Source of the DNA: Escherichia phage Fraca
Length of the DNA: 43,664 bases
Sequence record: LR597645
Strand: one strand, 5' to 3'
This document shows, piece after piece, positions 5,808 through 43,664 of the stretch (its first letter is position 1; each line of letters starts with the position of its first letter). The notes under the pieces were generated by a model, which did no database searches, had not been told where the DNA came from, and saw nothing but the letters and a program-made list of their open reading frames with translations. A program made the translations under genes and the position numbers.

Positions 5808-5848
5808 TCCTTAACGGCGGCCTGCGGGCCGCTTTCACAGGTGGGAAA

Positions 5849-6097
5849 ATGAAACTGATCGCACTCAAACCGATTTATTTCGGCGGTACCGTCGTTACTG
5901 AAGGGCTTCCGCTGGAAACTCTGGAACAGCACGGGCGCGAGCTCATCAAGAAAGGTTATGCGAAGCTCGAAGAATCAGAAAATCCTGCAAAGCAGGAACA
6001 GCAGCAGGAACAGCAGCAGGAACAGCAGCAGGAACAGCAGCAGGAACAGCAGCAGGAACAGCCGGAATTAAAAGCGGAAAAGAAGGCGAAAAAATAA
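5849..6097 (+). CDS. Small head-region protein with EQQQ tandem-repeat tract
   Basis: 82 aa ORF between capsid and connector genes; contains (EQQQ)x5 encoded by a 12-bp tandem repeat. Confidence 0.55.
   Translation: MKLIALKPIYFGGTVVTEGLPLETLEQHGRELIKKGYAKLEESENPAKQEQQQEQQQEQQQEQQQEQQQEQPELKAEKKAKK
5993..6060 (+). repeat. Tandem repeat, 12-bp unit GAACAGCAGCAG x about 5.5
   Basis: Direct reading of 5992-6066. Confidence 0.9.
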
Positions 6098-7577: not shown

Positions 7578-7601
7578 AGACCGCTTCGGCGGTCTTTTTT
7601 T
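7578..7601 (+). terminator. Intrinsic terminator hairpin upstream of major tail gene
   Basis: AGACCGCTTCGGCGGTCT stem-loop followed by a T7 tract. Confidence 0.7.
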
Positions 7602-7614
7602 AACTGGAGAAACC

Positions 7615-8085
7615 ATGACCAGTAAGTATGAAGTCACGAAGGGGATGACATTTGCCGTCTCCGACGCACCCGTAACCGCTGATGATTTTAATTCACCAAC
7701 TTTCCCGGGGGCTGGCATTACCTGGCTGGAAGCGGCCTGTGCAACGAAGGAGATCACCTTCACCGGCGGCCAGAAAGGGGATATCGACGTCACCACGCTT
7801 TGTTCAACCGAACAGGAGCAAACCAATGGCCTTGCCGCGCCTGCTGAAATGAGCATTACCCGTAACTGGGTTGGCGATGAAGCAGCACAGGAGGCACTGC
7901 AGACCGCTTACGAAAATGACGAACTGCGCGCGCTGCGCGTGGTATTCCCGTCTGGCAACGGTTTCTACGTGCTGGTGGAGGTACGCCAGAGCTCATGGTC
8001 TGCTGCAACCTCTTCCGTTGTTGGCGCAACCTATTCTCTGCGTGTACGCGGCAAACCTAAACGCATCTACGCGTCTGGTTCCTGA
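7615..8085 (+). CDS. Major tail tube protein
   Basis: 156 aa; position between tail terminator and G/T chaperone; flanked by intrinsic terminators as for highly expressed tail tube genes. Confidence 0.8.
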   Translation: MTSKYEVTKGMTFAVSDAPVTADDFNSPTFPGAGITWLEAACATKEITFTGGQKGDIDVTTLCSTEQEQTNGLAAPAEMSITRNWVGDEAAQEALQTAYENDELRALRVVFPSGNGFYVLVEVRQSSWSAATSSVVGATYSLRVRGKPKRIYASGS

Positions 8086-8107
8086 GCGGCTTCGGCCGCT
8101 TTTTTTA
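8085..8107 (+). terminator. Intrinsic terminator downstream of major tail gene
   Basis: AGCGGCTTCGGCCGCT hairpin followed by a T7 tract. Confidence 0.7.
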
Positions 8108-8829: not shown

Positions 8830-8851
8830 GCCCGCGGCTGCGGGCTTTTTT
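8830..8851 (+). terminator. Hairpin plus T-tract immediately upstream of tape measure start
   Basis: GCCCGCGGCTGCGGGC followed by TTTTTT, then ATG at 8863. Confidence 0.6.
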
Positions 8852-8862
8852 ATGGGTGAAAT

Positions 8863-11800
8863 ATGGCAACGCTGCGCGAGCTAATCATCAAAATTTCGGC
8901 GAACTCTTCTTCTTTCCAGTCAGAGATCGCCAGAGCGTCCCGCATGGGAACCGATTACTACCGCACTATGGAACAGGGCGGGAAAAAAGCTGCAGCGGCC
9001 ACGCGTGAAACTCAGCGGTCTTTGGCTGACCTGAATTCTCAGCTTGCAACCGTGCGATCCTCTGCTGCCGGGCTTGCCGGTGCGTGGGCTGGTGCATTTG
9101 CCACGCATCAGCTGATTCAGTTTGCCGACACGTGGAACCAGTTGAATGGGCGTCTTCGCCTTGCGTCCTCTTCCAGTGAGGATTACGTGCAATCCCAGCG
9201 CGTGCTGATGGAGATTAGCCAGCGCACCGGAACATCCCTCGAGGCAAACAGCAACCTGTACAGCAGAATTGCGCAGTCCCTGCGAGATGCCGGTTACGCT
9301 TCTGCTGACGTCGCAAAAGTTACGGAAACCGTAGCAACCTCACTGAAGCTGTCTGGCGCCAGTACCGAAGAGGCAAGTTCTGTTATCACCCAGCTTAGCC
9401 AGGCACTTGGCTCAGGCGTTTTGCGAGGTGAAGAATTTAACTCCATCATGGAGAACGGTGGCCGCCTGGCGAAACTGCTGGCTGATGGGCTGGGTACCAC
9501 TGTTGGTGGCCTGCGAAATATGGCCAACAACGGCGATCTGACGACCAACAAGATCGTCCCGCTGCTGACCAACGTTGAGATCCTCCGTAAAGAATTCGAC
9601 ACCCTTCCTGCATCCATCAGCGGATCTGCACAGAAAGTGCAAAACGCCTTTCTCGCATGGGTTGGCGGGGCGAATGATGCTGTCGGCGCATCATCCACGC
9701 TTTCTGGCGTGCTGGATGGTCTGGCGAATAACATCGATGATGTGGCAAATACAGCCGGTCTTCTGGTTGGTGTTGGCCTCGCTCGTTATTTTGGCAACAT
9801 GGTCGGCAGCGTTGCTCAGTCAACCCGGGCAGTCCTCGCTAATACGGCCGCCGAGGTCGCGCTGGCGCAGGCTCAGGTCCGTGGAGCTCAGGTTAGCGTT
9901 GCTGCTGGTCGCCAGGCTGTTTACCGCGCTCAACAGGCGCGTGCAGCGGCGACGAGTATTGAGGCTCAGATTGTAGCTGAGCGTAATCTTGCTGCTGCTC
10001 AGGCATCACTGAATACGGCGCTTGCTGGCAGGACTTCGGCCGTTAATAACCTCACCAATACAGCCTCGGTGATGTCCCGCCTGGGTAGTGGCGTTCTTGG
10101 TATTCTCGGTGGCTGGCCTGGAGTGATTATCGGTGCCGGCGCTGCGATGTATGGCCTGTATCAGCATACCCAGCAGGTGCACCGTGAGGCGGTAGGTTTT
10201 GCCAACAACCTCGACGAGATCAACACCAAGCTCCAGCAGATGTCGGTGCTTGGCCTGCGTTCGACCGCGGCTGATGCCCGTACATCTTTACAGGCGCAAA
10301 AACAGGACCTGGCCGACCTCGACTCTCAGATCGCGAAGGTGAAAGACAGCCTTAAGGCGGTTGACCAAATCCAGCAGGACTATAACCGCCATCCGACGCT
10401 GACCCTGATTAACACTTTCATGGACCAGGCCGACATCACGGCCAAAAATATCGAGCTGACCGATAAGCTGAACCAGCTGGAGTACCAGCGCGAACAGGCA
10501 GCCTCAAAAGTCGAGCAAACGCAGAAGCTGGTAAACCAGGCCAGCGATCTGGCCACGCAAAAGGCTATCGAACAGGCTGGCGCCGTCTCTATCCTGAAAG
10601 GTGCGTATGACCTGCTTAACCGCTCAATGTCAGCGACCGCTGGCGCCAAGCCGCCGCAATATGCCGGGCCCGTCGTTTCACTGGCAAACGCAACGCCTCA
10701 ACAGCAAACTGCACTGGAGCGCTCGCGCCGAGATAACGAGCTGGCCAGCCTAAGCGGTTTAGAGAAACTCCATCAGCAGCACGTGTATGAAGCAGAAGAC
10801 CTGAAGCTGACGGGAGCACTTTACACCCAGTACATCTACAACAAGGATCAGGCAGCCAAAAAAGATGCAGCGGCTGCGGAGGCAAAAAAAACCTCTACCG
10901 CCGCCTCGAAAGCACAGAGTAAAGCCGAGCGCGAAGCGGCCAGCACCGCCGAACAGTATTCCCGGAAAATGGCCGATCTGAGTGTGGCTATCGACGTGCA
11001 ACGCGTCAGGGCGACGGAAGGCGAAAAAGCCTCCGAGCTTTACGCGGCATCGCACCAGGCAGGCACTAAATGGACCGACGAGCAGCGCAGGGCGATCCAG
11101 GCATCATCAGCAGAGCTGGCAAAATGGACGCAAAAAGCCGACGAGAACGTGCGCAAGCAGCGCGAACAAGCTGATGCCCTGAAAGATTTAACTGAAGCGG
11201 CCCGAAAGTTCAGGGATGAGGCGACGCTGACAACCGAAACCGCAGGCATGAGCGATCGCCAGCGTAGCCGTTTCGACGAGACGCAACAGATCGACCGTGT
11301 TTTTGCTAAAACGGACGGCGGTACCGAGGCCATCGCGCAGCGCGCCGCAGCCCTCGATGCTCTGGATAAGAAATACAAGGCTATTGCAGCAGCTGAAGCG
11401 GATTGGATGTCCGGAGTATCACGCGGCTATGCAAACTGGTTTGATGAAATCAGCAATGTTTCCGGCACGGTTTCTGACGGGGTGAAAACCACACTCGACA
11501 GCGCGTTTAGTAATGTCACCTCAATGCTCGAAGGCAATAAGGTCAGCTGGAAATCCTGGGGTATCTCTGTTTTACAGATTATCGAAAAAGTGGCTCTGCA
11601 GATGGCGGTGGTAAGCGCGATGGGTGGGGCCTCTTCCGGTTCTGGCATCTTTGGCTCTCTCATCGGCAGTGTAGGCAGCTTCTTCGGGGGCGGGGCGGGA
11701 GCATCAGCCAGCACCGGTACGGCGGTTTCCAGTTACGGATCGAACTTCCAGTTTAACGCCAAAGGCGGCGTTTATGACTCTCCATCTCTGAGCGCTTTCA

Positions 11801-12144
11801 GTAATGGGATCGTCAGAAACCCCACCATGTTCGCTTTCGCGAAAGGCGGGGCCGGAATCATGGGCGAGGCCGGGCCGGAGGCAATCATGCCGCTGACTCG
11901 CGCACCGGATGGTTCACTCGGTGTTCGTGCGGTCGGCGCTAGTGGTGGTCAGTCTGTATCTTCGGCGCCACAGGTTTATATCACCATCGATGGCAACGGA
12001 AATACCTCCACGCAGACTTCACCCGGTCTTGAGCAATTTGGTGCTGATGTCGGTAAATATGTTGATCAGCGATATAAGCAGAACATCATGCGAGATATTC
12101 GCCCTGGCGGTGACATCTGGAACGCAATGAAAGGAACCCGATAA
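8863..12144 (+). CDS. Tail tape measure protein
   Basis: 1093 aa, Ala/Gln-rich coiled-coil protein downstream of the G/T chaperone. Confidence 0.9.
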   Translation: MATLRELIIKISANSSSFQSEIARASRMGTDYYRTMEQGGKKAAAATRETQRSLADLNSQLATVRSSAAGLAGAWAGAFATHQLIQFADTWNQLNGRLRLASSSSEDYVQSQRVLMEISQRTGTSLEANSNLYSRIAQSLRDAGYASADVAKVTETVATSLKLSGASTEEASSVITQLSQALGSGVLRGEEFNSIMENGGRLAKLLADGLGTTVGGLRNMANNGDLTTNKIVPLLTNVEILRKEFDTLPASISGSAQKVQNAFLAWVGGANDAVGASSTLSGVLDGLANNIDDVANTAGLLVGVGLARYFGNMVGSVAQSTRAVLANTAAEVALAQAQVRGAQVSVAAGRQAVYRAQQARAAATSIEAQIVAERNLAAAQASLNTALAGRTSAVNNLTNTASVMSRLGSGVLGILGGWPGVIIGAGAAMYGLYQHTQQVHREAVGFANNLDEINTKLQQMSVLGLRSTAADARTSLQAQKQDLADLDSQIAKVKDSLKAVDQIQQDYNRHPTLTLINTFMDQADITAKNIELTDKLNQLEYQREQAASKVEQTQKLVNQASDLATQKAIEQAGAVSILKGAYDLLNRSMSATAGAKPPQYAGPVVSLANATPQQQTALERSRRDNELASLSGLEKLHQQHVYEAEDLKLTGALYTQYIYNKDQAAKKDAAAAEAKKTSTAASKAQSKAEREAASTAEQYSRKMADLSVAIDVQRVRATEGEKASELYAASHQAGTKWTDEQRRAIQASSAELAKWTQKADENVRKQREQADALKDLTEAARKFRDEATLTTETAGMSDRQRSRFDETQQIDRVFAKTDGGTEAIAQRAAALDALDKKYKAIAAAEADWMSGVSRGYANWFDEISNVSGTVSDGVKTTLDSAFSNVTSMLEGNKVSWKSWGISVLQIIEKVALQMAVVSAMGGASSGSGIFGSLIGSVGSFFGGGAGASASTGTAVSSYGSNFQFNAKGGVYDSPSLSAFSNGIVRNPTMFAFAKGGAGIMGEAGPEAIMPLTRAPDGSLGVRAVGASGGQSVSSAPQVYITIDGNGNTSTQTSPGLEQFGADVGKYVDQRYKQNIMRDIRPGGDIWNAMKGTR

Positions 12145-13241: not shown

Positions 13242-13952
13242 ATGCGTCAGAAAACCATTGATGCTATTATGGCGCATGCAGCCGCTGAACATCCACGTGA
13301 GTGCTGTGGTGTGGTGGCGCAGAAAAGCCGCGTTGAACGTTATTTTCCTTGCCGGAATCTTGCCGCGGCGCCGGAGGACAATTTTGTCCTTTGCCCCGAA
13401 GATTATGCATCTGCTGAGGACTGGGGTACGGTGATCGCCATCGTTCACAGCCACCCTGACGCCACTACGCAGCCGAGCGAACTGGATAAAGCGCAATGCG
13501 ACGCAACGCTTTTACCCTGGCATATCGTGAGCTGGCCGGAGGGGGATTTACGCACCATCCAGCCGCGCGGAGAGCTGCCGTTGCTGGAGCGTCCTTTTGT
13601 GCTTGGTCACTTTGACTGCTGGGGGCTGGTAATGAGCTATTTCCGGCAAACTCATGGTATCGAACTCCACGATTACCGGGTTGATTATCCCTGGTGGGAA
13701 AACGACTACCCGGACAACTTCTATCAGGATTGCTGGTACGAATGCGGATTCCGTGAATTCGACGGGCCGCCGAAACCTGGCGATATGGTGATCATGCAGG
13801 TGCAGGCTGATAAGTGGAACCACGCGGGTATATTGCTGGAGGGCAATATGCTGCTGCACCACCTGTACGGTCACCTGAGTCAGCGAGTACCATATGGCGG
13901 TTACTGGCAGGAACGAACGATGAAGATTCTCCGTTACAAATCTCTGTGCTAA
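13242..13952 (+). CDS. K: Tail assembly protein K (JAB/MPN plus NlpC/P60-like)
   Basis: 236 aa; HSHP metal-binding motif and Cys-containing C-terminal half, as in lambda gpK. Confidence 0.8.
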   Translation: MRQKTIDAIMAHAAAEHPRECCGVVAQKSRVERYFPCRNLAAAPEDNFVLCPEDYASAEDWGTVIAIVHSHPDATTQPSELDKAQCDATLLPWHIVSWPEGDLRTIQPRGELPLLERPFVLGHFDCWGLVMSYFRQTHGIELHDYRVDYPWWENDYPDNFYQDCWYECGFREFDGPPKPGDMVIMQVQADKWNHAGILLEGNMLLHHLYGHLSQRVPYGGYWQERTMKILRYKSLC

Positions 13953-13984
13953 CCTTTTGCAAAACGAAAAAAGGGGTTAGGGAT

Positions 13985-14332
13985 ATGAGGAAATTTCTTT
14001 CGATATTAGCGTGTAGCCTGATTATTGTTGGTTGCACACCTTCTGAAAAGGATTTTATTGACATGGGGGAGTCCTTGGTCAAAGACACCCTTAAAGATCC
14101 GGACAGTGCCAAGTTTGAATCATTTTTCCGTGATTTTGGTGAAAATTCTGGATATGTTTGCGGTTATGTGAATGCTAAAAATTCATACGGCGCATACACG
14201 GGTAAAAAACCATATTATGTGCGGATTGAGGTCAAAGATGGAAAGGTCAATAATCATGGACCAATCATCATTATTAATGACCAAGACCAGAAGAAAATTG
14301 ATTCCTATGAGTCAATCTGTCAAAGGGACTGA
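13985..14332 (+). CDS. Lipoprotein (moron in the tail module)
   Basis: ATG at 13985 with GGGG RBS; signal peptide MRKFLSILACSLIIVGC with lipobox; AT-rich relative to neighbours. Confidence 0.65.
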   Translation: MRKFLSILACSLIIVGCTPSEKDFIDMGESLVKDTLKDPDSAKFESFFRDFGENSGYVCGYVNAKNSYGAYTGKKPYYVRIEVKDGKVNNHGPIIIINDQDQKKIDSYESICQRD

Positions 14333-14338
14333 TATGCC

Positions 14339-14674
14339 ATGAAAAAGATTATCCTCCCAATTTTTATCTTCCTGCTGATGGGATGTTCTGTTTCTTCACT
14401 AGAAGAACAAAAACCTATCCTATCAGAGCATTCAACAAAAACTGTTGATGAGGTTAATCGTTGCCTTTCTCCTAAATGGGTGGAGCTACGATCTTCAAGC
14501 TCAAGCATACCCACTGAATCAGGATACAAAATCACAGCATCAGACGATATATTCGGTGCTCTTTCGGTGGTGAATATCGATAAATCAGCGACAGGCGGAA
14601 GCGATATAAAGGTTTATGCCGTCGCGAAAGGATGGAACGACCACTGGGCTACGGCCGCCAGATCATGTCTTTGA
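14339..14674 (+). CDS. Lipoprotein (second moron in the tail module)
   Basis: 111 aa; signal peptide MKKIILPIFIFLLMGC with lipobox; AT-rich. Confidence 0.65.
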   Translation: MKKIILPIFIFLLMGCSVSSLEEQKPILSEHSTKTVDEVNRCLSPKWVELRSSSSSIPTESGYKITASDDIFGALSVVNIDKSATGGSDIKVYAVAKGWNDHWATAARSCL

Positions 14675-14692
14675 AAACCCTAAAATAATCTA

Positions 14693-14717
14693 AGCCACCT
14701 TCGGGTGGCTTTTTTTA
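14693..14717 (+). terminator. Intrinsic terminator after the lipoprotein morons
   Basis: AGCCACCTTCGGGTGGCT hairpin followed by a T7 tract. Confidence 0.75.
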
Positions 14718-14723
14718 TGGAGA

Positions 14724-15329
14724 ATGAAAATGTCAGAGGTTATGACCAGAATTGAGCTCGGCGGTGTTTTGGGTAAAACCTACGGGAAGGTTCACCATCG
14801 TCTAATAAGAACAACCGCAGAAGCGATAAACTCACTTACAAAAACAATAGACGGGCTGGAGAAATTTTTGATAACCAGCAAAGCAAGGGGCCTGACCTAC
14901 GCCGTCTTTAAAGATAAAAAAAATATCGGAAAAGATGATTTTGGTTTTCCGGTAACAGGTGAAGTTATTCGAATTGTCCCTGTAGTGATCGGAAGTAAAA
15001 AAGCTGGAGTTTTACAGACAATTCTTGGAGCTGTTCTTGTCGTTGCGGGGATTGCAGTTGGAATGCTTTCTGGTGGAACACTATCTGCTGTTGGTTACGG
15101 AGCCGCGAAGTTTGGTGCAGCTATGATCGCTGGTGGAGTTGTTCAGATGCTATCGCCTCAACCCGGGGGCCTGGCCAGCAAACAAAGCGCAGATAACCGT
15201 GCATCGTATGCGTTCGGCGGGGTGACAAATACCGCCGCACAGGGTTACCCGGTTCCGCTCCTTTACGGCCGCCGGCGAATCGGCGGGGCAATTATTTCCG
15301 CCGGAATTTATGTCGAAGATCAGCAGTAG
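14724..15329 (+). CDS. I: Tail assembly protein I (lambda gpI-like)
   Basis: 201 aa with a Gly/Ala-rich hydrophobic C-terminal half, as in gpI; position between K and J. Confidence 0.8.
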   Translation: MKMSEVMTRIELGGVLGKTYGKVHHRLIRTTAEAINSLTKTIDGLEKFLITSKARGLTYAVFKDKKNIGKDDFGFPVTGEVIRIVPVVIGSKKAGVLQTILGAVLVVAGIAVGMLSGGTLSAVGYGAAKFGAAMIAGGVVQMLSPQPGGLASKQSADNRASYAFGGVTNTAAQGYPVPLLYGRRRIGGAIISAGIYVEDQQ

Positions 15330-15347
15330 AGAACAAACCTTTTTACA

Positions 15348-15371
15348 AGCCACCCCCGGGTGGCTTTTTTT
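15348..15371 (+). terminator. Intrinsic terminator upstream of J, near-identical to the 14693 element
   Basis: AGCCACCCCCGGGTGGCT hairpin followed by a T7 tract, then ATG at 15383. Confidence 0.7.
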
Positions 15372-15382
15372 ATGGGCGCGAT

Positions 15383-18300
15383 ATGGCTAAAACAATTACC
15401 GGACGAAAAGGGGGGAGCTCCAGTTCCCGAACTCCTACCGAACAGCCTGATGATCTGCAATCTGTAGCGAAGGCAAAGATCCTCGTTGCGCTTGGGGAAG
15501 GGGAGTTTGCTGGACAGCTCACCGGGAAGGATATCTACCTGGACGGAACGGCGCTGGAGAACGCCGACGGCTCCCAAAACTTCAGCGGCGTTACGTGGGA
15601 ATTCCGCGCGGGTACACAGGCCCAGAAGTACATTCAGGGCATTCCCGGTACCGAAAACGAAATCAGCGTGGGCACCGAGGTAACGAGCGCTACAGCGTGG
15701 ACACGAACCTTCACCAATACACAGCTTTCAGCGGTTCGTTTACGCCTGAAATGGCCTTCGCTTTTCAAGCAGGAGGACGATGGCGATCTGGTTGGTTACT
15801 CGGTTAATTATGCGATTGACTTGCAGACGGACGGCGGGACATGGCAGACAGTCCTCAATACCAGTGTGACCGGGAAAACGACCTCAGGTTATGAGCGTAG
15901 CCACCGTATTGATTTACCTCAGGCGGGCAGCACCTGGACAATCAGACTACGCAAAATTACCGCTGACGCCAACAGCGCGAAAATCGGCGACACGATGACG
16001 CTACAGAGCTTCACTGAGGTGATTGATGCGAAATTGCGATATCCGAACACCGCGCTGCTGTACATTGAATTCGACTCCAGCCAGTTTAATGGTTCTATAC
16101 CTCAGATCTCCTGTGAGCCTCGTGGCCGCGTTATTCGGGTTCCTGATACTTACGACCCGGAAACTCGATCTTACAGCGGGACATGGACCGGGGCGTTTAA
16201 GTGGGCATGGACGGATAACCCTGCGTGGATTTTTTACGATCTGGTTGTTTCTGACCGGTTCGGCCTCGGTCACCGTTTGACTGCTGCTAACATCGATAAA
16301 TGGACGCTTTATCAGGTCGCCCAGTATTGCGATCAGATGGTACCGGACGGTAAGGGTGGCGATGGAACAGAACCACGCTATACCTGCAACGTGTACATTC
16401 AGGACCGGAACGACGCTTACACAGTCCTGCGTGATTTTGCTGCTATTTTCCGTGGCATGACGTACTGGGGTGGCGATCAGATCGTTGCTCTGGCCGATAT
16501 GCCCCGTGATGTGGATTACAGCTACACGCGCGCTAATGTTGTTGGCGGTCGCTTCACCTATTCAAGCAGCACCACGAAAACCCGCTACACTACAGCGCTG
16601 GTTTCATGGTCCGATCCCGGTAACGCCTATGCTGACGCGATGGAACCCGTATTTGAGCAGGCTCTGGTGGCGCGGTACGGCTTCAATCAGCTGGAAATGA
16701 CAGCCATCGGCTGTACCAGGCAGTCAGAAGCGAACCGAAAGGGGCGCTGGGGTATTCTCACCAACAACAAGGATCGCGTTGTTTCGTTTGATGTCGGGCT
16801 GGACGGAAACATACCGCAGCCTGGCTATATCATCGCTGTGGCAGACGAGCTGCTTTCCGGAAAGGTTATGGGCGGACGCATCAGCGCCGTTAATGGTCGC
16901 GTTATCAAACTTGACCGTGTAGCTGATGCGGCAGCAGGTGATCGCCTTATCCTCAACCTTCCCTCCGGAGCGTCACAGAGCAGGACCATTCAGGCGGTTA
17001 ACGGGGAATCGGTCACAGTCACCACCGCGTACAGTGAGACGCCTCAGGTCGAAGCTGTCTGGGTGGTTGAGTCAAACGAACTCTACGCGCAGCAGTATCG
17101 TGTTGTGAGTGTCGCTGATAACGATGATGGCACTTTCACCATTACCGGTGCATGGCACGATCCGGATAAATATGCCCGAATCGATACCGGAGCCATCATT
17201 GACCAGCGGCCGGTGAGCGTGATCCCGCCGGGCAACCAGTCGCCGCCTGCGAACATCGTGATCAGCTCGTTTTCTGTGGTGCAGCAAAATATCAGCGTCG
17301 AAACGATGCGGGTGAGCTGGGACCAGGCGCAGAACGCTATCGCCTATGAAGCTCAATGGCGCCGCAACGACGGGAACTGGGTTAACGTGCCGCGCAGCTC
17401 CACCACGTCATTCGACGTTCCGGGGATTTATGCCGGGCGCTACCTGGTGCGCGTGCGCGCAATCAACGCCGCTGAAATTTCTTCCGGATGGGGGTATTCA
17501 GAAGAGAAAACGCTGACGGGTAAAGTGGGCAATCCACCGAAGCCGGTGGGTTTCATCGCGTCTGAAAACGTGGTTTTCGGTATCGAGCTGAACTGGGGAT
17601 TCCCGGCGAATACCGACGACACGCTGAAGACGGAAATTCAGTACAGCCTTACCGGTACCGAAGACGATGCGATGCTGCTGGCCGATGTGCCTTACCCGCA
17701 GCGCAAATATCAGCAGATGGGACTTAAGGCTGGGCAGATTTTCTGGTACCGCGCGCAGCTGGTGGACCGTAGCGGCAACGAATCAGGTTATACCGAATGG
17801 GTGCGAGGACAGGCCAGCATCGATGTTTCCGACATCACAGACGTGATCCTGGAGGAAATTAAGGACTCCGATACGTTCAAAGACCTGATCGAGAACGCGG
17901 TGGACAGCAACGAAAAAATTGCTGGCATGGCTGACGAAATCAAAAACCATGCTGACGAACTCGAGCAGCAGGCGAAAGACATCCAGGAGAACGCTGACGG
18001 GCTGGCTCAGGCCGAAGTGAAGATAGACGAGATCTCTGTGTCGATGGACGGCATGACGGGAGGTGTGAAGAACTCGGCAATTGCGATAATCCAGGCCAAT
18101 CTCGCTCAGGTGGCCACGCGTAAAACGCTGTCGGCATCGGTAGCCGGTAACAGCGCGCAGCTGGACCGCATTGATGAGGTGATCGTCACTGACAGGGAGG
18201 CAACGGCACGCGCATTGCTGAGCCTGCAGACGAACGTCAACGGCAATACGGCATCCATCAACAGTCTGAGCCAGACGGTTTCGAATTACCAGCAGACCAC

Positions 18301-18829
18301 GGCGACGCAGATAAACGCCATCACTGCGACCATAAACGGAAATACGGCGGCGATAACAACGAACGCCCAGGCAATTGCGAACGTAAACGGCCAACTCAGC
18401 GCGATGTACAACATCAAAGTTGCGGTAACGAGTAATGGCCAGTATTACGCCGCAGGCATGGGGATCGGGGTGGAGAATACGCCATCAGGGATGCAGTCGC
18501 AGGTAATCTTCCTGGCCGACCGTTTTGCCGTCACTACGGCAGCAGGAAACAGCGTGGCGTTGCCATTTGTGATCCAGAATGGTCAGACGTTCATCAGGGC
18601 CAGCTTCATTCAGGACGGTACCATTGAGAACGCCAAAATCGGTAACTATATCCAGTCGAATAACTATGTGGCTGGCTCGGCAGGCTGGAAACTTGATAAA
18701 GGCGGCACCTGGGAAAACTACGGCAGCGACGGTCAGGGAGCAAGAAAATCCACCAATGTCACTGACAGTATCAGGGATTCAAATGGCGTGCTCCGCGTGC
18801 AAATCGGCAAACTTACAGGGGTGTTTTGA
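15383..18829 (+). CDS. J: Host specificity / tip attachment protein J (central tail fibre)
   Basis: 1148 aa ORF in the lambda J position; fibronectin-like middle region and C-terminal receptor-binding region. Confidence 0.9.
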   Translation: MAKTITGRKGGSSSSRTPTEQPDDLQSVAKAKILVALGEGEFAGQLTGKDIYLDGTALENADGSQNFSGVTWEFRAGTQAQKYIQGIPGTENEISVGTEVTSATAWTRTFTNTQLSAVRLRLKWPSLFKQEDDGDLVGYSVNYAIDLQTDGGTWQTVLNTSVTGKTTSGYERSHRIDLPQAGSTWTIRLRKITADANSAKIGDTMTLQSFTEVIDAKLRYPNTALLYIEFDSSQFNGSIPQISCEPRGRVIRVPDTYDPETRSYSGTWTGAFKWAWTDNPAWIFYDLVVSDRFGLGHRLTAANIDKWTLYQVAQYCDQMVPDGKGGDGTEPRYTCNVYIQDRNDAYTVLRDFAAIFRGMTYWGGDQIVALADMPRDVDYSYTRANVVGGRFTYSSSTTKTRYTTALVSWSDPGNAYADAMEPVFEQALVARYGFNQLEMTAIGCTRQSEANRKGRWGILTNNKDRVVSFDVGLDGNIPQPGYIIAVADELLSGKVMGGRISAVNGRVIKLDRVADAAAGDRLILNLPSGASQSRTIQAVNGESVTVTTAYSETPQVEAVWVVESNELYAQQYRVVSVADNDDGTFTITGAWHDPDKYARIDTGAIIDQRPVSVIPPGNQSPPANIVISSFSVVQQNISVETMRVSWDQAQNAIAYEAQWRRNDGNWVNVPRSSTTSFDVPGIYAGRYLVRVRAINAAEISSGWGYSEEKTLTGKVGNPPKPVGFIASENVVFGIELNWGFPANTDDTLKTEIQYSLTGTEDDAMLLADVPYPQRKYQQMGLKAGQIFWYRAQLVDRSGNESGYTEWVRGQASIDVSDITDVILEEIKDSDTFKDLIENAVDSNEKIAGMADEIKNHADELEQQAKDIQENADGLAQAEVKIDEISVSMDGMTGGVKNSAIAIIQANLAQVATRKTLSASVAGNSAQLDRIDEVIVTDREATARALLSLQTNVNGNTASINSLSQTVSNYQQTTATQINAITATINGNTAAITTNAQAIANVNGQLSAMYNIKVAVTSNGQYYAAGMGIGVENTPSGMQSQVIFLADRFAVTTAAGNSVALPFVIQNGQTFIRASFIQDGTIENAKIGNYIQSNNYVAGSAGWKLDKGGTWENYGSDGQGARKSTNVTDSIRDSNGVLRVQIGKLTGVF

Positions 18830-32669: not shown

Positions 32670-32981
32670 ATGGATCGCCTAATTAGAGAAATGTCGTATC
32701 TCTTTACCAAGCAGCGTTTTATGGAGCTTCAGGAAACGGCAAAAGACATCGCAATCGGTCATAGTGATTTTCCTGAGTGTTTCGGTCTTATTGCTGACGC
32801 CATCGCTGAATTTGTTGAAGACACTCCTGATGATGAGTGGCGAGAGCATGAAAAAATCCTTATGCACTACGTTGCTATGCGTGTTCTGACGCTGTGGGGT
32901 AACGGCGATAAAGTGACTGATGTCCAGTGGGCACACCCTGGCTGGTTTGGCACTGCTGAAAAGGGGGAAACCATTCAATGA
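32670..32981 (+). CDS. Hypothetical protein
   Basis: 103 aa; ATG at 32670 two nt after the primase-helicase stop; overlaps the next start. Confidence 0.5.
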   Translation: MDRLIREMSYLFTKQRFMELQETAKDIAIGHSDFPECFGLIADAIAEFVEDTPDDEWREHEKILMHYVAMRVLTLWGNGDKVTDVQWAHPGWFGTAEKGETIQ

Positions 32982-33760
32982 AGTTGGAAGCATCACTAAA
33001 ACACTTTAGCCCTCAGGGTGTGCACATCAGCGACGACGTGAAAGGAACCTCTCCGGATCGTCTCACCGGCACTGATGTAATGGCGGCAATTGGCACCACC
33101 AGCAGCCGTGCGCGCTTCGGACTGGCGGCGTTCTTCGGTAAAGCGGGAATCAGCAAAACGGATGAACAGCTCGCAGTTCAGGCGCTGGCGCGATATGCGA
33201 TGGATGTCGCACCGAAGAATGTTCGCAAAGCAGCTGGTGGGCAGTTCGGATGGTGCATGCAGATGCTGGCACAATTTGCCTTTGCTGATTACTCCCGTTC
33301 AGCGGCTACCAGCGTGACGTGTCACAGCTGCAGTGGTACCGGGTTTATCTTCGGTAATGAGGATGTGGTTAAACATCCTGGTATTTTCGATGCAGACGGT
33401 GCCGAAGTGGTGGCTCCGAAGATAAAAAATGAGCTGGTGAAAAGGGTTTGCGGAACATGCGGAGGAAAGAAAGTGATCCTTGCCCGGTGCAGGTGCGGCG
33501 GTAAAGGCGAAGTGTTGGACCGCAAAGCGACTAAAGACAGCGGCGCACCGGTTTTCAAAACGTGTGAACGTTGCTCTGGTAATGGCTTCTCTGCTATCTC
33601 CTCGGCGACGGTACACCGTGCCATTCTGAAGCGTCTCCCTGACCTCCATCAGTCCTCATGGTCACGCAACTGGAAACCCTTTTATGAAATGCTGGTGGAC
33701 ACTCTGCGCCAGGGGGAGCGTCATGCAGCAGTGGAATTTGAGAAGGCGACAACTTATTAA
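32978..33760 (+). CDS. Putative late antiterminator Q-like protein with DnaJ-type zinc finger repeats
   Basis: 260 aa with four CxxCxGxG motifs; sits between replication genes and the late promoter/lysis region. Confidence 0.5.
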   Translation: MKLEASLKHFSPQGVHISDDVKGTSPDRLTGTDVMAAIGTTSSRARFGLAAFFGKAGISKTDEQLAVQALARYAMDVAPKNVRKAAGGQFGWCMQMLAQFAFADYSRSAATSVTCHSCSGTGFIFGNEDVVKHPGIFDADGAEVVAPKIKNELVKRVCGTCGGKKVILARCRCGGKGEVLDRKATKDSGAPVFKTCERCSGNGFSAISSATVHRAILKRLPDLHQSSWSRNWKPFYEMLVDTLRQGERHAAVEFEKATTY

Positions 33761-33802
33761 TATGATCGGAACAAATGGCGACACTTTTTTGCACGTTAGT
33801 GT

Positions 33803-33840
33803 TGACTTTGCATAAAACTGTCCTGTATGCTTCTGATTAT
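33803..33840 (+). promoter_or_regulatory. Candidate late promoter (PR'-like)
   Basis: TTGACT at 33803-33808, then 17-18 nt spacer and weak -10 (TATGCT); followed about 40 nt later by a terminator. Confidence 0.35.
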
Positions 33841-33876
33841 GGAGTATAGCGCCTGTAGATAATTAACCTCTAAAAG

Positions 33877-33903
33877 CCCGCCACGTTGCGGGTTTTTTTA
33901 TTT
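33877..33903 (+). terminator. Intrinsic terminator (tR'-like) in the late leader
   Basis: CCCGCCACGTTGCGGG hairpin followed by an 11-nt T-rich tract. Confidence 0.7.
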
Positions 33904-34195
33904 CCAGCAAGGTTTTTCTTCATTGCGTTTGTTATGTTGTGTTTTTTAACTGAGGGTCAGTTGATGAGCGCAGATGAAAACTTGTTGAGTAAAATTCAGG
34001 AAGTACGGACGGTAGAGGATGTGGAGCAAGTCAATTTGGGCCTTTCTAAAGGCTGGGTGATTTTGATGATCACCGAGAGCTCTACAGTCTGGGAAGATGG
34101 CAGCAAAAGCAGCCTTGTTACATATCACATGGGCAAGCCGAAGGCATTGCCGGTCTGATCAAGCCTTACCAAATCAAAAATTTCAATCATATATA

Positions 34196-34219
34196 GGCCA
34201 CCTCACGGTGGCCTTTTTT
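34196..34219 (+). terminator. Intrinsic terminator
   Basis: GGCCACCTCACGGTGGCC hairpin followed by a T6 tract. Confidence 0.7.
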
Positions 34220-34436
34220 GTTTCCCCTCGTTCTGAGAGGACTCATGGCAATGATGCATTGACCGTAGGAATGAATTCGGCGTAACTTATTTATGTGGTG
34301 AATTCTTTCTAAGCGAAAGGGCGTTCCAGTCAACTGCTATTTGCAGGTATGCGCGCGTCTTTGCTAACTGGGGCAGAGACACCGGGAGGCACCCGGCACC
34401 ATGACAACAACAATACAATTTTGAAATTCCTTGAGA

Positions 34437-34464
34437 GCCTGCCATAAAACGCAGGCCTTTTTTT
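34437..34464 (+). terminator. Intrinsic terminator
   Basis: GCCTGCCATAAAACGCAGGC hairpin followed by a T7 tract. Confidence 0.6.
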
Positions 34465-34613
34465 ATGGTTTTGTTAACTGCTGCTACGCTTTGAGTTGTG
34501 GGAAGTTCCTGAATGCCCGGTGGTTCTCCTGAACCTGGCGTGAATCAGCCGATACAGCTTCATCCGGGATGCAAGATCAACTCACACCTACCTCACAAAT
34601 AGTCAACTCATTG

Positions 34614-34641
34614 GCCCGCTTCATAAGAGCGGGCTTTTTTT
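34614..34641 (+). terminator. Intrinsic terminator upstream of the holin
   Basis: GCCCGCTTCATAAGAGCGGGC hairpin followed by a T7 tract. Confidence 0.7.
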
Positions 34642-34682
34642 ATTCTTACGCACAACACCCGCACACAGCGAGGTGAGAGACC

Positions 34683-34985
34683 ATGAAAATGAATGATTCA
34701 GGGAACATTTTCACGCAGTTCTTCGCGTGGGTAGCGGCTCTGGCGTCTGCAATCGGATTTACCACTCAGGATCTGGTGTTCATGTTCTTTGGCGCGGCTG
34801 GTCTGCTTTTATCCCTCGCCTCCTACGTGAACGGGCGTGTGGATGCCCGCCGAAAGCGCAGGGAAGACGAAAAGCGCACCCAGATGGTTAATGACTACCT
34901 GAAAGGTGTAGGTGATAAGCCTCTCCATGAACGGCCAGCAGCGGCAAGTGTAGTTGTTGAGGCCTTACAAAAGGAAAGTGAGTAA
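34683..34985 (+). CDS. Holin (class II, pinholin-like)
   Basis: 100 aa with two TM segments and a charged C-terminus; MKM dual-start-like N-terminus; immediately precedes the SAR endolysin. Confidence 0.65.
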   Translation: MKMNDSGNIFTQFFAWVAALASAIGFTTQDLVFMFFGAAGLLLSLASYVNGRVDARRKRREDEKRTQMVNDYLKGVGDKPLHERPAAASVVVEALQKESE

Positions 34986-35521: not shown

Positions 35522-36063
35522 ATCCGTCTCCGTTAATTGCAGCAATAAAAGCCTGGTGGAAGCCGTTTTTAGTATTGATTGTTGTGGTCGCCGCGTTTAT
35601 CGCTGGCAATGTCTGGAGTAACCGGGCATGGGAAAAAAAGTGGGCAGACCGTGATAGTGCCGAGTCCTCGCAACAAGTCAACGCGCAGACCGCCGCCAGA
35701 ATGATAGAGCAAGGGCGAATTATTGCCCGTGATGAGGCCGTTAAAGATGCTCAAGAGAAAGCAGCTGCCGCGCGTGATGTTTCTGCCCGTTTGGCTGGCA
35801 CTGTTAGTCAGCTGCAGCAACAGGCAAGAAAACTCGCCACCCGCCTGGACGCCGCAAAGCACACCGCAGATCTTGCCGCTGCCGTCAGAGGCAAAACAGC
35901 CGGAGCCAACGCCACAATGCTCGCCGACATGCTCGGAGGTCTTGCAGCAGAAGCTAAATATTATGCTGAACGATCTGACGAAAGCTATCGAGCAGGAATG
36001 ACCTGTCAGCGTATTTATGACTCGGTGAGAGAGTCAAACAACCAATCTGGAGCCTCGCAATAG
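35518..36063 (+). CDS. Rz-like i-spanin
   Basis: 181 aa; N-terminal TM segment then Ala/Gln-rich coiled coil; GTG start overlapping the endolysin stop. Confidence 0.7.
35777..36001 (+). CDS. Rz1-like o-spanin lipoprotein embedded in the +1 frame of Rz
   Basis: ATG at 35777 encodes [14 protein letters not shown] (lipobox) followed by a Pro-rich sequence, wholly inside the Rz gene. Confidence 0.65.
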
Positions 36064-36074
36064 TGGGGCTTTTT
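36052..36074 (+). terminator. Terminator hairpin, copy 1 of a duplicated element
   Basis: GCCTCGCAATAGTGGGGC (7-bp stem with wobble pairs, AAUA loop) followed by T5. Confidence 0.55.
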
Positions 36075-36092
36075 ACTAACCGAGGAAACCAA

Positions 36093-36317
36093 ATGTCCGT
36101 TCGCGCTAAATTCCGCTGCCACTTCATTCAGAAAGCAGAAGACGATTCACACCGCACAATCTACATGAGTCCTGTAACTGCAGATACCACCGAAAACAAG
36201 TCGTGGTCAAAGTATACACCTGGCGGCCAGCTGCAGATGGTCATCTCGAACCCTGCAGCGTTCGAACTCTTCGAGCAAGGCAAAGAATACTTCATCGACA
36301 TACAACCGGCGAAGTAG
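36093..36317 (+). CDS. Hypothetical protein (moron bracketed by duplicated terminators)
   Basis: ATG at 36093 with GAGGAAACC RBS; 74 aa. Confidence 0.5.
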   Translation: MSVRAKFRCHFIQKAEDDSHRTIYMSPVTADTTENKSWSKYTPGGQLQMVISNPAAFELFEQGKEYFIDIQPAK

Positions 36318-36331
36318 TAAAGAAATTTCCA

Positions 36332-36354
36332 GCCTCGCAATAGCGGGGCTTTTT
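36332..36354 (+). terminator. Terminator hairpin, copy 2 of the duplicated element
   Basis: GCCTCGCAATAGCGGGGC followed by T5; near-identical to 36052-36074. Confidence 0.6.
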
Positions 36355-36381
36355 ATTACCAGAAGAAGCAGGAGAAGAAGC

Positions 36382-43523: not shown

Positions 43524-43664
43524 TATCTGCTCTCATTTGCGCGGTCTTGGGGAGGGCGGGTAAAAACCTCAGGGAAATCACCCTAAAGGACCGCCGCCTA
43601 ACCTCTTTTCACATCGCCGCAGGTTAGAAAACTTTTTTTAGGGGTCCCCCACTCGATGATTAAT
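43524..43664. other. Non-coding packaging (cos/pac) region continuing into 188-201 upstream of terS
   Basis: Non-coding stretch between the HNH and small terminase genes with GGGGTCCCCC palindrome and T7 tract; exact site undetermined. Confidence 0.4.

Follow-up and report, generated by a model that had tools for sequence, protein, structure and literature searches.

Two look-alike terminator-type hairpins around tail assembly gene I of Escherichia phage Fraca probably close one occupied and one empty accessory-gene slot

In phages HK97 and HK022 (AF069529, AF069308; Juhala et al. 2000) the tail operon runs G-T, H, M, L, K, I, J; in HK97 putative terminators lie at three sites within it, before H, before I and before J. 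Both the gene order and the three sites are the same in the phage described here. Terminators at these sites are already known, in that they are marked in the GenBank records of HK97, mEp234, HK446 and phiKO2. In the HK97 record a 'putative terminator' stands right before each of I, J and H, another follows the major tail gene, and gp15, gp22 and gp23 are labelled as moron products; the mEp234 and HK446 records give a 'rho-independent terminator' at the same places. In HK97, mEp234 and HK446 the slot before H contains gp15 and an annotated terminator, and in HK022 it contains neither. The moron products labelled in the HK022 record (gp20, gp22 and srb) lie in the K-I and I-J gaps. The record of phiKO2 (AY374448), which unlike our phage is a linear-plasmid prophage, has terminators flanking I and a 'putative moron', gp19, in the K-I gap. 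A search of the literature found nothing on these sites, and no transcript data were located for the relatives.

Two further systems are useful for comparison. Lambda has a 60-nt gap between I and J for which the RefSeq record lists no feature, and within it a hairpin, AAACCGCC-TGCG-GGCGGTTT, lies just 5' of the J ribosome-binding site and is followed by an interrupted T tract (TTTTGTCATTT). Its K and I genes overlap and the hairpin before I is absent. The 'ant moron' of P22 is, as here, a variable accessory slot right before the receptor-binding protein gene in the late operon (PMC2629481). Sequence 5' of the P22 tailspike gene is believed to influence how much late transcription continues into that gene, and the authors propose a single ancestral insertion that was remodelled later (PMC2629481). 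P22 differs from our phage in being a podovirus with other genes, including the repressors Mnt and Arc, and there is no sequence relationship.

The DNA analysed here, referred to as the window, is the whole 43,664-nt stretch of Escherichia phage Fraca (LR597645). It represents an HK97-like lambdoid phage with a lambda-type tail module. Its closest DNA relative is Escherichia phage LMessi (89%), followed by HK446, mEp234, HK97 and HK022 (82-84%), all of them Hendrixvirinae; among E. coli complete genomes, none carried this arrangement at 80% coverage or above. The features of the tail region are as follows.

7578-7601, + strand: terminator-like hairpin just 5' of the major tail gene
7615-8085: major tail gene
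8084-8107, + strand: terminator-like hairpin just 3' of the major tail gene
8830-8851, + strand: pre-H hairpin, GCCCGC-GGCT-GCGGGC + T6, between the G-T chaperone gene and H, followed by ATGGG
8863-12144, + strand: tape measure gene H
13242-13952, + strand: tail tip gene K, JAB and NlpC/P60 domains (Pfam PF14464, PF00877), left border of the K-I slot
13985-14332, + strand: lipoprotein gene 1, 115 aa, signal peptide, lipobox IVGC, PHROG 2320, survey family F1
14339-14674, + strand: lipoprotein gene 2, 111 aa, lipobox LMGC, PHROG 914, survey family F0
14692-14716, + strand: upstream hairpin, AAGCCACC-TTCG-GGTGGCTT + T7, terminator-like 3' end of the lipoprotein insert
14730-15329, + strand: tail assembly gene I, 199 aa (PHROG 32, E 2e-71)
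15347-15371, + strand: downstream hairpin, AAGCCACC-CCCG-GGTGGCTT + T7, conserved terminator-like element in the I-J spacer
15383-18829, + strand: central tail fibre or tip gene J (Pfam PF24801, PF13550, PF09327)

The K product shares 96-97% amino-acid identity with K of HK97 and mEp234. For I, the Pfam Lambda_tail_I match falls below the cutoff. The start of I is most likely the ATG at 14730 rather than the first in-frame ATG at 14724, because a GGAG lies at 14719-14722 and because this choice agrees with the starts annotated in LMessi and HK97.

A first-pass annotation of this DNA had claimed that two near-identical terminator-type hairpins surround I and that each is followed within 10-15 nt by the next start codon. 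Both observations are borne out: the upstream hairpin (AGCCACCTTCGGGTGGC + T7) lies at 14693-14716 and the downstream one (AGCCACCCCCGGGTGGC + T7) at 15348-15371, and the starts of I (14730) and J (15383) follow the T tracts at distances of 13 and 11 nt. The upstream run comprises seven T in total, including the T of 'GGCT', and position 14717 is the A of an ATG. With their flanking A:T pairs the stems extend to 8 bp (14692-14711 and 15347-15366) around 4-nt loops. A repeat finder returned them as a 29-nt direct repeat, 14692-14720 and 15347-15375, identical at 27 of 29 positions (93%) and spaced by 655 nt, with a third, weaker copy at 34195-34223. The stem pattern is expected only 0.02 times in shuffles of the window, and on the + strand it occurs exactly at 14693 and 15348 and with two mismatches at 34196. 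The hairpins of the HK97/HK022 tail operons are of the same type (AAACCACC-TACG-GGTGGTTT before I, AGCCACC-TTTG/TTCG-GGTGGCT before J), but the two in HK97 differ from each other at more stem and loop positions than the pair described here.

Each of our stems contains five G:C pairs and is capped by a tetraloop, which in the upstream hairpin is of the cUUCGg kind. Folded in context, the upstream element reaches -15.5 kcal/mol (z -3.9) and the downstream element -15.0 kcal/mol (z -1.6), with energies for the core hairpins of -12.2 and -11.3 kcal/mol, respectively. Scores of the d'Aubenton-Carafa type, calculated with our own implementation in which positive values are terminator-like, were +30.6 and +25.6. 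Both elements therefore show the G+C-rich stem-loop and U-rich tract on the transcribed strand that define an intrinsic terminator. Both are also intergenic and 3' of a co-oriented gene, each 17 nt past a stop codon on the + strand, that of lipoprotein gene 2 in one case and that of I in the other. Rfam 15 gave no family at the gathering score anywhere in the window, nor did 13900-15500 yield one when scanned permissively; the single sub-threshold match, near 14681-14750 on the minus strand, is at chance level.

The first pass had also pointed to a similar hairpin, T tract and ATGG ahead of the tape measure gene, and this arrangement is present at the pre-H hairpin. The 'ATGG' that follows the T tracts is the beginning of the G-rich Shine-Dalgarno region. 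We considered whether the ATG in it might open a leader peptide, but at 14717, 15372 and 8852 alike it is out of frame with the next gene and has no ribosome-binding site, as the T tract sits upstream. Two other candidate identities were rejected. The CCACC/GGTGG arms, compared by eye, differ from the Chi site GCTGGTGG on both strands. A dispersed repeat of the REP or MITE kind does not fit either: the window holds three copies whose similarity is confined to the hairpin, and in other phages the flanks are unrelated.

The upstream hairpin does not adjoin K. The K-I gap in the window is 777 nt, and two lipoprotein genes that had gone unremarked in this DNA stand within it, their products beginning MRKFLSILACSLIIVGC and MKKIILPIFIFLLMGC, respectively. 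By tblastn, the second gene has homologues in the same K-I position in Serratia phage OS31 and in phiKO2, where gp19 shows 49% amino-acid identity to it. The cargo of the slot differs from that of HK022, which has gp20 there. Morons are defined by their own promoter and terminator, an atypical GC content and expression from repressed prophages (PMC3594210). In our phage the insert (13953-14716) separates genes that are adjacent in relatives. Its base composition is unlike that of its surroundings, at a GC fraction of 0.37-0.41 (0.37-0.44 for lipoprotein gene 1) against about 0.55 in K and the flanks, and the low-GC block runs on into the N-terminal half of I. Judged by its sequence, the hairpin at 14692-14716 gives the insert a terminator of its own. 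Promoter matches near the lipoprotein genes are weak (13807-13834 and 14226-14254, each 9/12 of the consensus), shuffles contain promoter-like sites just as often, and no convincing sigma-70 promoter was found in the window 5' of these genes. The independent expression from a prophage that would give the terminator its purpose is therefore hypothetical.

To see how the hairpins are distributed, we surveyed 160 loci around I homologues, half of them (80) relatives of the I in the window and the other 80 relatives of the I of OS31, together with lambda and annotated phages, and located K, I, J and terminator-like hairpins at each locus. A K-I gap of at least 150 nt was classed as an insert, and a hairpin was counted when it lay within 45 nt of the I start. 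The upstream hairpin is associated with the insert: it was present at 117 of 129 loci with an insert and missing at the other 12 (~9%), and where K and I are adjacent or overlap it was missing at 25 of 32 loci. The seven insert-less loci that do have a hairpin all belong to one distant lineage, in which it overlaps the final codons of K; not every lineage, then, carries the upstream hairpin strictly as part of an insert. None of the six close relatives whose K-I gap is 8 nt has it. The gap is 8 nt or an overlap in L055, L072-L074, L077, L083 and many distant relatives.

The comparison of L067 with L072 shows the insertion directly, in that the two loci share the same I allele and differ by an indel whose limits are the 3' end of K and the I ATG. 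This indel holds a promoter-like TTGCAG-N16-TAAGAT, a lipoprotein gene, a hairpin and a new ribosome-binding site for I. As a promoter candidate, the motif in L067 is better than the matches in our window, and it belongs to a different insert. Across the survey the products of most K-I cargo families are lipoproteins or small membrane proteins, and the sequence of the upstream hairpin differs both between and within insert families, with at least 14 hairpins in family F2.

The I-J gap is organised differently. It measures 53 nt in our phage (15330-15382) and contains no ORF, so the slot is empty, as is the slot between T and H; in HK97 these two slots hold gp22/gp23 and gp15. The homologous I-J gap carries inserts of 323-1008 nt in 28 surveyed loci, HK97 and HK022 among them. 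Since the gap at 15330-15382 contains no extra gene, the pre-J hairpin here is an orphan slot terminator and not part of a moron. Counting distinct J-upstream sequences with an I-J gap of at least 45 nt, the hairpin is present in 109 of 111 J leaders, lambda included. It lies directly 5' of the J Shine-Dalgarno region whatever the size of the gap, be it 52-62 nt or, with inserted genes, 323-1008 nt, and the inserted genes, where present, stand upstream of it. A minority lineage has an I-J gap of 23 nt from which the hairpin is absent.

The downstream hairpin is conserved and under selection, with compensatory changes in its stem. Around 19 different stems are used at this position, that of lambda being one of them. 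When 30 diverse sequences were aligned, each of the five pairs tested had changed on both sides, and the covariation score was 0.41 against 0.20 in shuffles (0 of 500 reached 0.41), with slid controls lower. MAFFT places some of the stems out of register, so these covariation counts are conservative. The most invariant part of the alignment is the T tract, which fits termination better than mere protection of the RNA. The first-pass annotation had counted a lack of conservation in relatives among the findings that would refute its reading; both hairpins are conserved in relatives.

Taken together, we think it probable that both elements are genuine intrinsic terminators, the first ending the lipoprotein insert and shielding I, the second being the ancestral terminator of an I-J slot that is empty in this phage. 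The upstream hairpin would stop transcription of the insert by polymerase that has not been modified by Q, for instance in a lysogen, before it reaches I. The downstream hairpin would be an older element, which nearly every lambda-like tail module has directly ahead of the ribosome-binding site of J. Late transcription has to cross both hairpins, since they lie within the late structural operon, and the first pass had suggested that this would fit antitermination of the Q type. In the standard lambdoid arrangement, polymerase modified by Q ignores terminators across the late operon. The elements expected for such an arrangement are present in the window.

32978-33760, + strand: Q-family late antiterminator gene (Pfam PF03589, E 1e-52)
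33802-33903, + strand: candidate late promoter TTGACT-18-TATGCT (33802-33831) and first terminator-like hairpin (33872-33897), both predicted
34195-34219, + strand: third CCACC-type hairpin, AGGCCACC-TCAC-GGTGGCCT + T6, in the late leader after a 64-aa ORF

Terminator-like hairpins at 33872, 34195, 34437 and 34613 lie between this promoter-like site on the Q side and the start of the holin gene at 34683. By sequence, then, the window combines a Q gene, a putative late promoter, predicted terminators and the lysis and structural genes, as a Q-dependent late operon does, and the suggestion of the first pass agrees with this layout. During lytic growth, RNA polymerase modified by Q at the late promoter would read through both hairpins and the other terminators of the operon, and the Q gene and terminator-rich late leader are compatible with such read-through.

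A different view of the same elements is that they are selected mainly for what they do within the read-through late mRNA, where they would set the relative amounts of I and J message or protein, as the first pass had supposed in suggesting that the element may tune J and I stoichiometry, termination being secondary. They could act as a barrier to 3' exonuclease, as an RNase E entry site in the U tract or as an insulator that keeps the ribosome-binding site open. In keeping with such a role, the hairpin always adjoins the Shine-Dalgarno region of the next gene, with 11-18 nt from T tract to ATG, and the same leader of hairpin, T tract and ATGGGYGMAATATGG precedes both H and J. The downstream hairpin is also kept where neither slot has an insert and nothing needs terminating (e.g. 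L072-L074 and lambda), and the region before the P22 tailspike gene offers a precedent (PMC2629481). On the other hand, a stabiliser or insulator would not need the U tract, which is the best conserved part, and the element is dispensable for tail assembly, given that some lineages lack it and have an I-J gap of 23 nt. We therefore regard a primary role in the lytic mRNA as unlikely. A combined version, in which the pre-J hairpin is no remnant of gene insertion but ancient and selected, and sets the dose of J on the lytic transcript by partial termination or RNA processing, while the pre-I and pre-J pair has been homogenised by gene conversion to give matched pairs in our phage and in OS31, seems to us more improbable still. 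Some role in the lytic mRNA, through stability, processing or insulation of translation, nevertheless retains a modest probability, because the pre-J hairpin is kept even at loci with no upstream gene to terminate.

If both hairpins are terminators, as we favour, their close resemblance within one genome still calls for an explanation. It may be meaningless in itself, two independent terminators having come to share a very common and very stable stem, and we give this a substantial chance that stays somewhat below even. The exact 22-mer GCCACCTTCGGGTGGCTTTTTT is found in at least 120 viral contigs, of which 92 lack any homologue of I or J and differ in their flanks, which makes it plausible that the common cUUCGg terminator was reached by convergence. 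Moreover, the upstream hairpin varies with insert type and the E. coli group has almost a single downstream type, so that a match will arise whenever the terminator of the insert is of the CCACC type. Less easily accommodated are the three CCACC-type hairpins in one 43-kb genome, against the 0.02 expected from shuffles, and OS31, whose two sites carry a matched pair of quite different sequence (AACCCGC-TCCG-GCGGGTT at both). There is also an excess of matches within genomes: stem cores agree in 28 of 63 dereplicated pairs, against 12.9 under global permutation and 21.4 under permutation within lineages (p about 0.002), figures that are not corrected for phylogeny.

The pair in OS31 and the excess of matches also speak for true homology of the copies, in which duplication or gene conversion would maintain their likeness and they would serve as short homology linkers for the exchange of accessory genes or I alleles, be it from phage to phage or from slot to slot. 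The I-J and K-I inserts have a single stretch of DNA in common, 21-29 nt at the 3' end that comprise the hairpin and T tract; one insert protein family is found in both slots, and six of 25 distinct stems occur at both positions. A second look-alike pair of terminators (36044 and 36324) has homology that extends beyond the stem, and homology to N15 ends at its first copy. Yet in the window the similarity between the pair around I stops at the 29 nt, and the widespread 22-mer makes convergence plausible. Single insert families (F0, F2) bear many different hairpins, and the N-terminal alleles of I are linked to insert type, with the mosaic joint inside I at ~15100 and not at the hairpins. The linker proposal in this full form appears doubtful to us. 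As for the origin of the resemblance, we give convergence about the same probability as shared descent or gene conversion.

The mosaic structure of I also bears on the idea, raised in the first pass, that the repeated element marks the boundary of a recombination module. In one sense it does, since hairpin and T tract are all the DNA that the inserts share and are thus the constant right-hand edges of two slots, K-I and I-J. It does not hold for I itself. One cluster of I C-terminal sequences is common to several insert types, and the low-GC N-terminal half follows the type of insert, while the C-terminal half is conserved; identity profiles rise to 99-100% in the middle of the gene, at ~15090-15150. 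Both the profiles and the clustering of alleles put the joint there, and we rejected the hairpins as breakpoints between I alleles. The upstream hairpin sits within a linkage block, flanked there by the insert on one side and the N-terminal half of I on the other. That I is bracketed by hairpins is a by-product of its position between two adjacent slots.

The hairpin in the I-J slot of phiKO2, GGCCACC-TTGC-GGTGGC + T7 followed by ATGGACGCGATATG, resembles ours, and its pre-I hairpin has a different, weaker sequence (AACAACC...GGTTGTT). For the annotation of our phage, the gain lies in the start of I at 14730 and in the marking of three insertion slots. More generally, the survey indicates that a pre-J hairpin is conserved, with covariation, across the lambda-like tail module and that most K-I cargo consists of lipoproteins. 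The arrangement around I is then a routine piece of lambdoid design, in which terminators close off accessory genes within the late operon and are ignored by antiterminated polymerase. The two lipoprotein genes are likely to be cargo expressed in the lysogen, and their predicted products are candidate exclusion or surface factors.

Gene I of the tail module (14730-15329) is a mosaic. The GC content of its N-terminal half is 0.42, against 0.58 in its C-terminal half, with the joint between the two at about 15090-15150. Across the surveyed loci around I homologues, the N-terminal half co-varies with the type of insert found between K and I, while the C-terminal half forms part of the conserved block on the J side. 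Among loci L001-L169, approximately 130 carry an insert in the K-I gap, and a small number of families dominate its cargo: small lipoproteins (F0, F1, F2, F6 and F12, the first two represented in the window) and small membrane proteins (F5, HK022 gp20-like). One family from the K-I slot of locus L053 also occurs, at approximately 40% amino-acid identity, in Serratia-type phages, where it occupies the I-J slot.

A terminator-like hairpin also occurs in a distant lineage that lacks a K-I insert; there it lies inside the last codons of K and overlaps the K stop codon. This K-end hairpin (one example being ATCCGC-TTCG-GCGGAT followed by T5) was seen in seven of the surveyed loci, L136, L138, L139, L149, L167, L131 and L141, about 10-25 nt 5' of the I start.

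Near the Rz-like gene, the window holds two more terminator hairpins that resemble each other, a second such pair, with a short reading frame between them:

36044-36087, hairpin copy overlapping the stop codon of the Rz-like gene
36093-36317, 74-aa ORF directly past the Rz-like gene, between the two hairpins
36324-36367, second hairpin copy

Both copies have the stem and loop AGCCTCGC-AATA-GYGGGGCT followed by T5, and they are 82% identical across 44 nt, flanks included. The homology of phage N15 to the window stops at the 36044 hairpin, which the N15 record annotates as a terminator. The pair looks like the product of an insertion that duplicated a terminator.

Hairpins are also present elsewhere. 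The late leader between Q and the holin gene (33802-34683) contains four terminator-like hairpins and one 64-aa ORF (33964-34158), for which no family match was found; phage HK639 has a region with two annotated terminators that shares 82% identity with part of this leader (34257-34643). Two features follow the major capsid gene:

approximately 5816-5833, GC-rich hairpin GGCGGCC-TGC-GGGCCGC without a proper T tract, 3' of the capsid gene and just 5' of the ORF below
5849-6097, 82-aa ORF matching DUF7210 (E 1e-7), directly 3' of the capsid gene

Within this ORF, approximately seven tandem copies of the 12-nt unit AGCAGGAACAGC (5979-6074) encode a run of four-residue units rich in Gln/Glu.

At the window ends, positions 1-127 match 1843-1969, inside the large terminase gene, at 100% identity, and 125-187 are repeated exactly as 43602-43664. 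These repeats suggest that the assembly is circular or overlapping and that the window start carries a spurious piece, which would make the true unit approximately 43,477 bp.

In lambda (L089, NC_001416), the 60-nt I-J gap (15445-15504) contains AAACCGCC-TGCG-GGCGGTTT, then TGTCATTTATGGAG. This hairpin is the positional homologue of the pre-J hairpin, but its T tract is interrupted, and the RefSeq record annotates no feature in the gap. The leaders that follow the T tracts of H (ATGGGTGAAATATGGC, 8852-8866) and J (ATGGGCGCGATATGGC, 15372-15386) are near-identical, and the exact H-type leader precedes J in some relatives (among them loci L126, L155 and L166). H and J are the two largest tail genes, and each seems to start with a shared, recurring cassette of hairpin plus leader.
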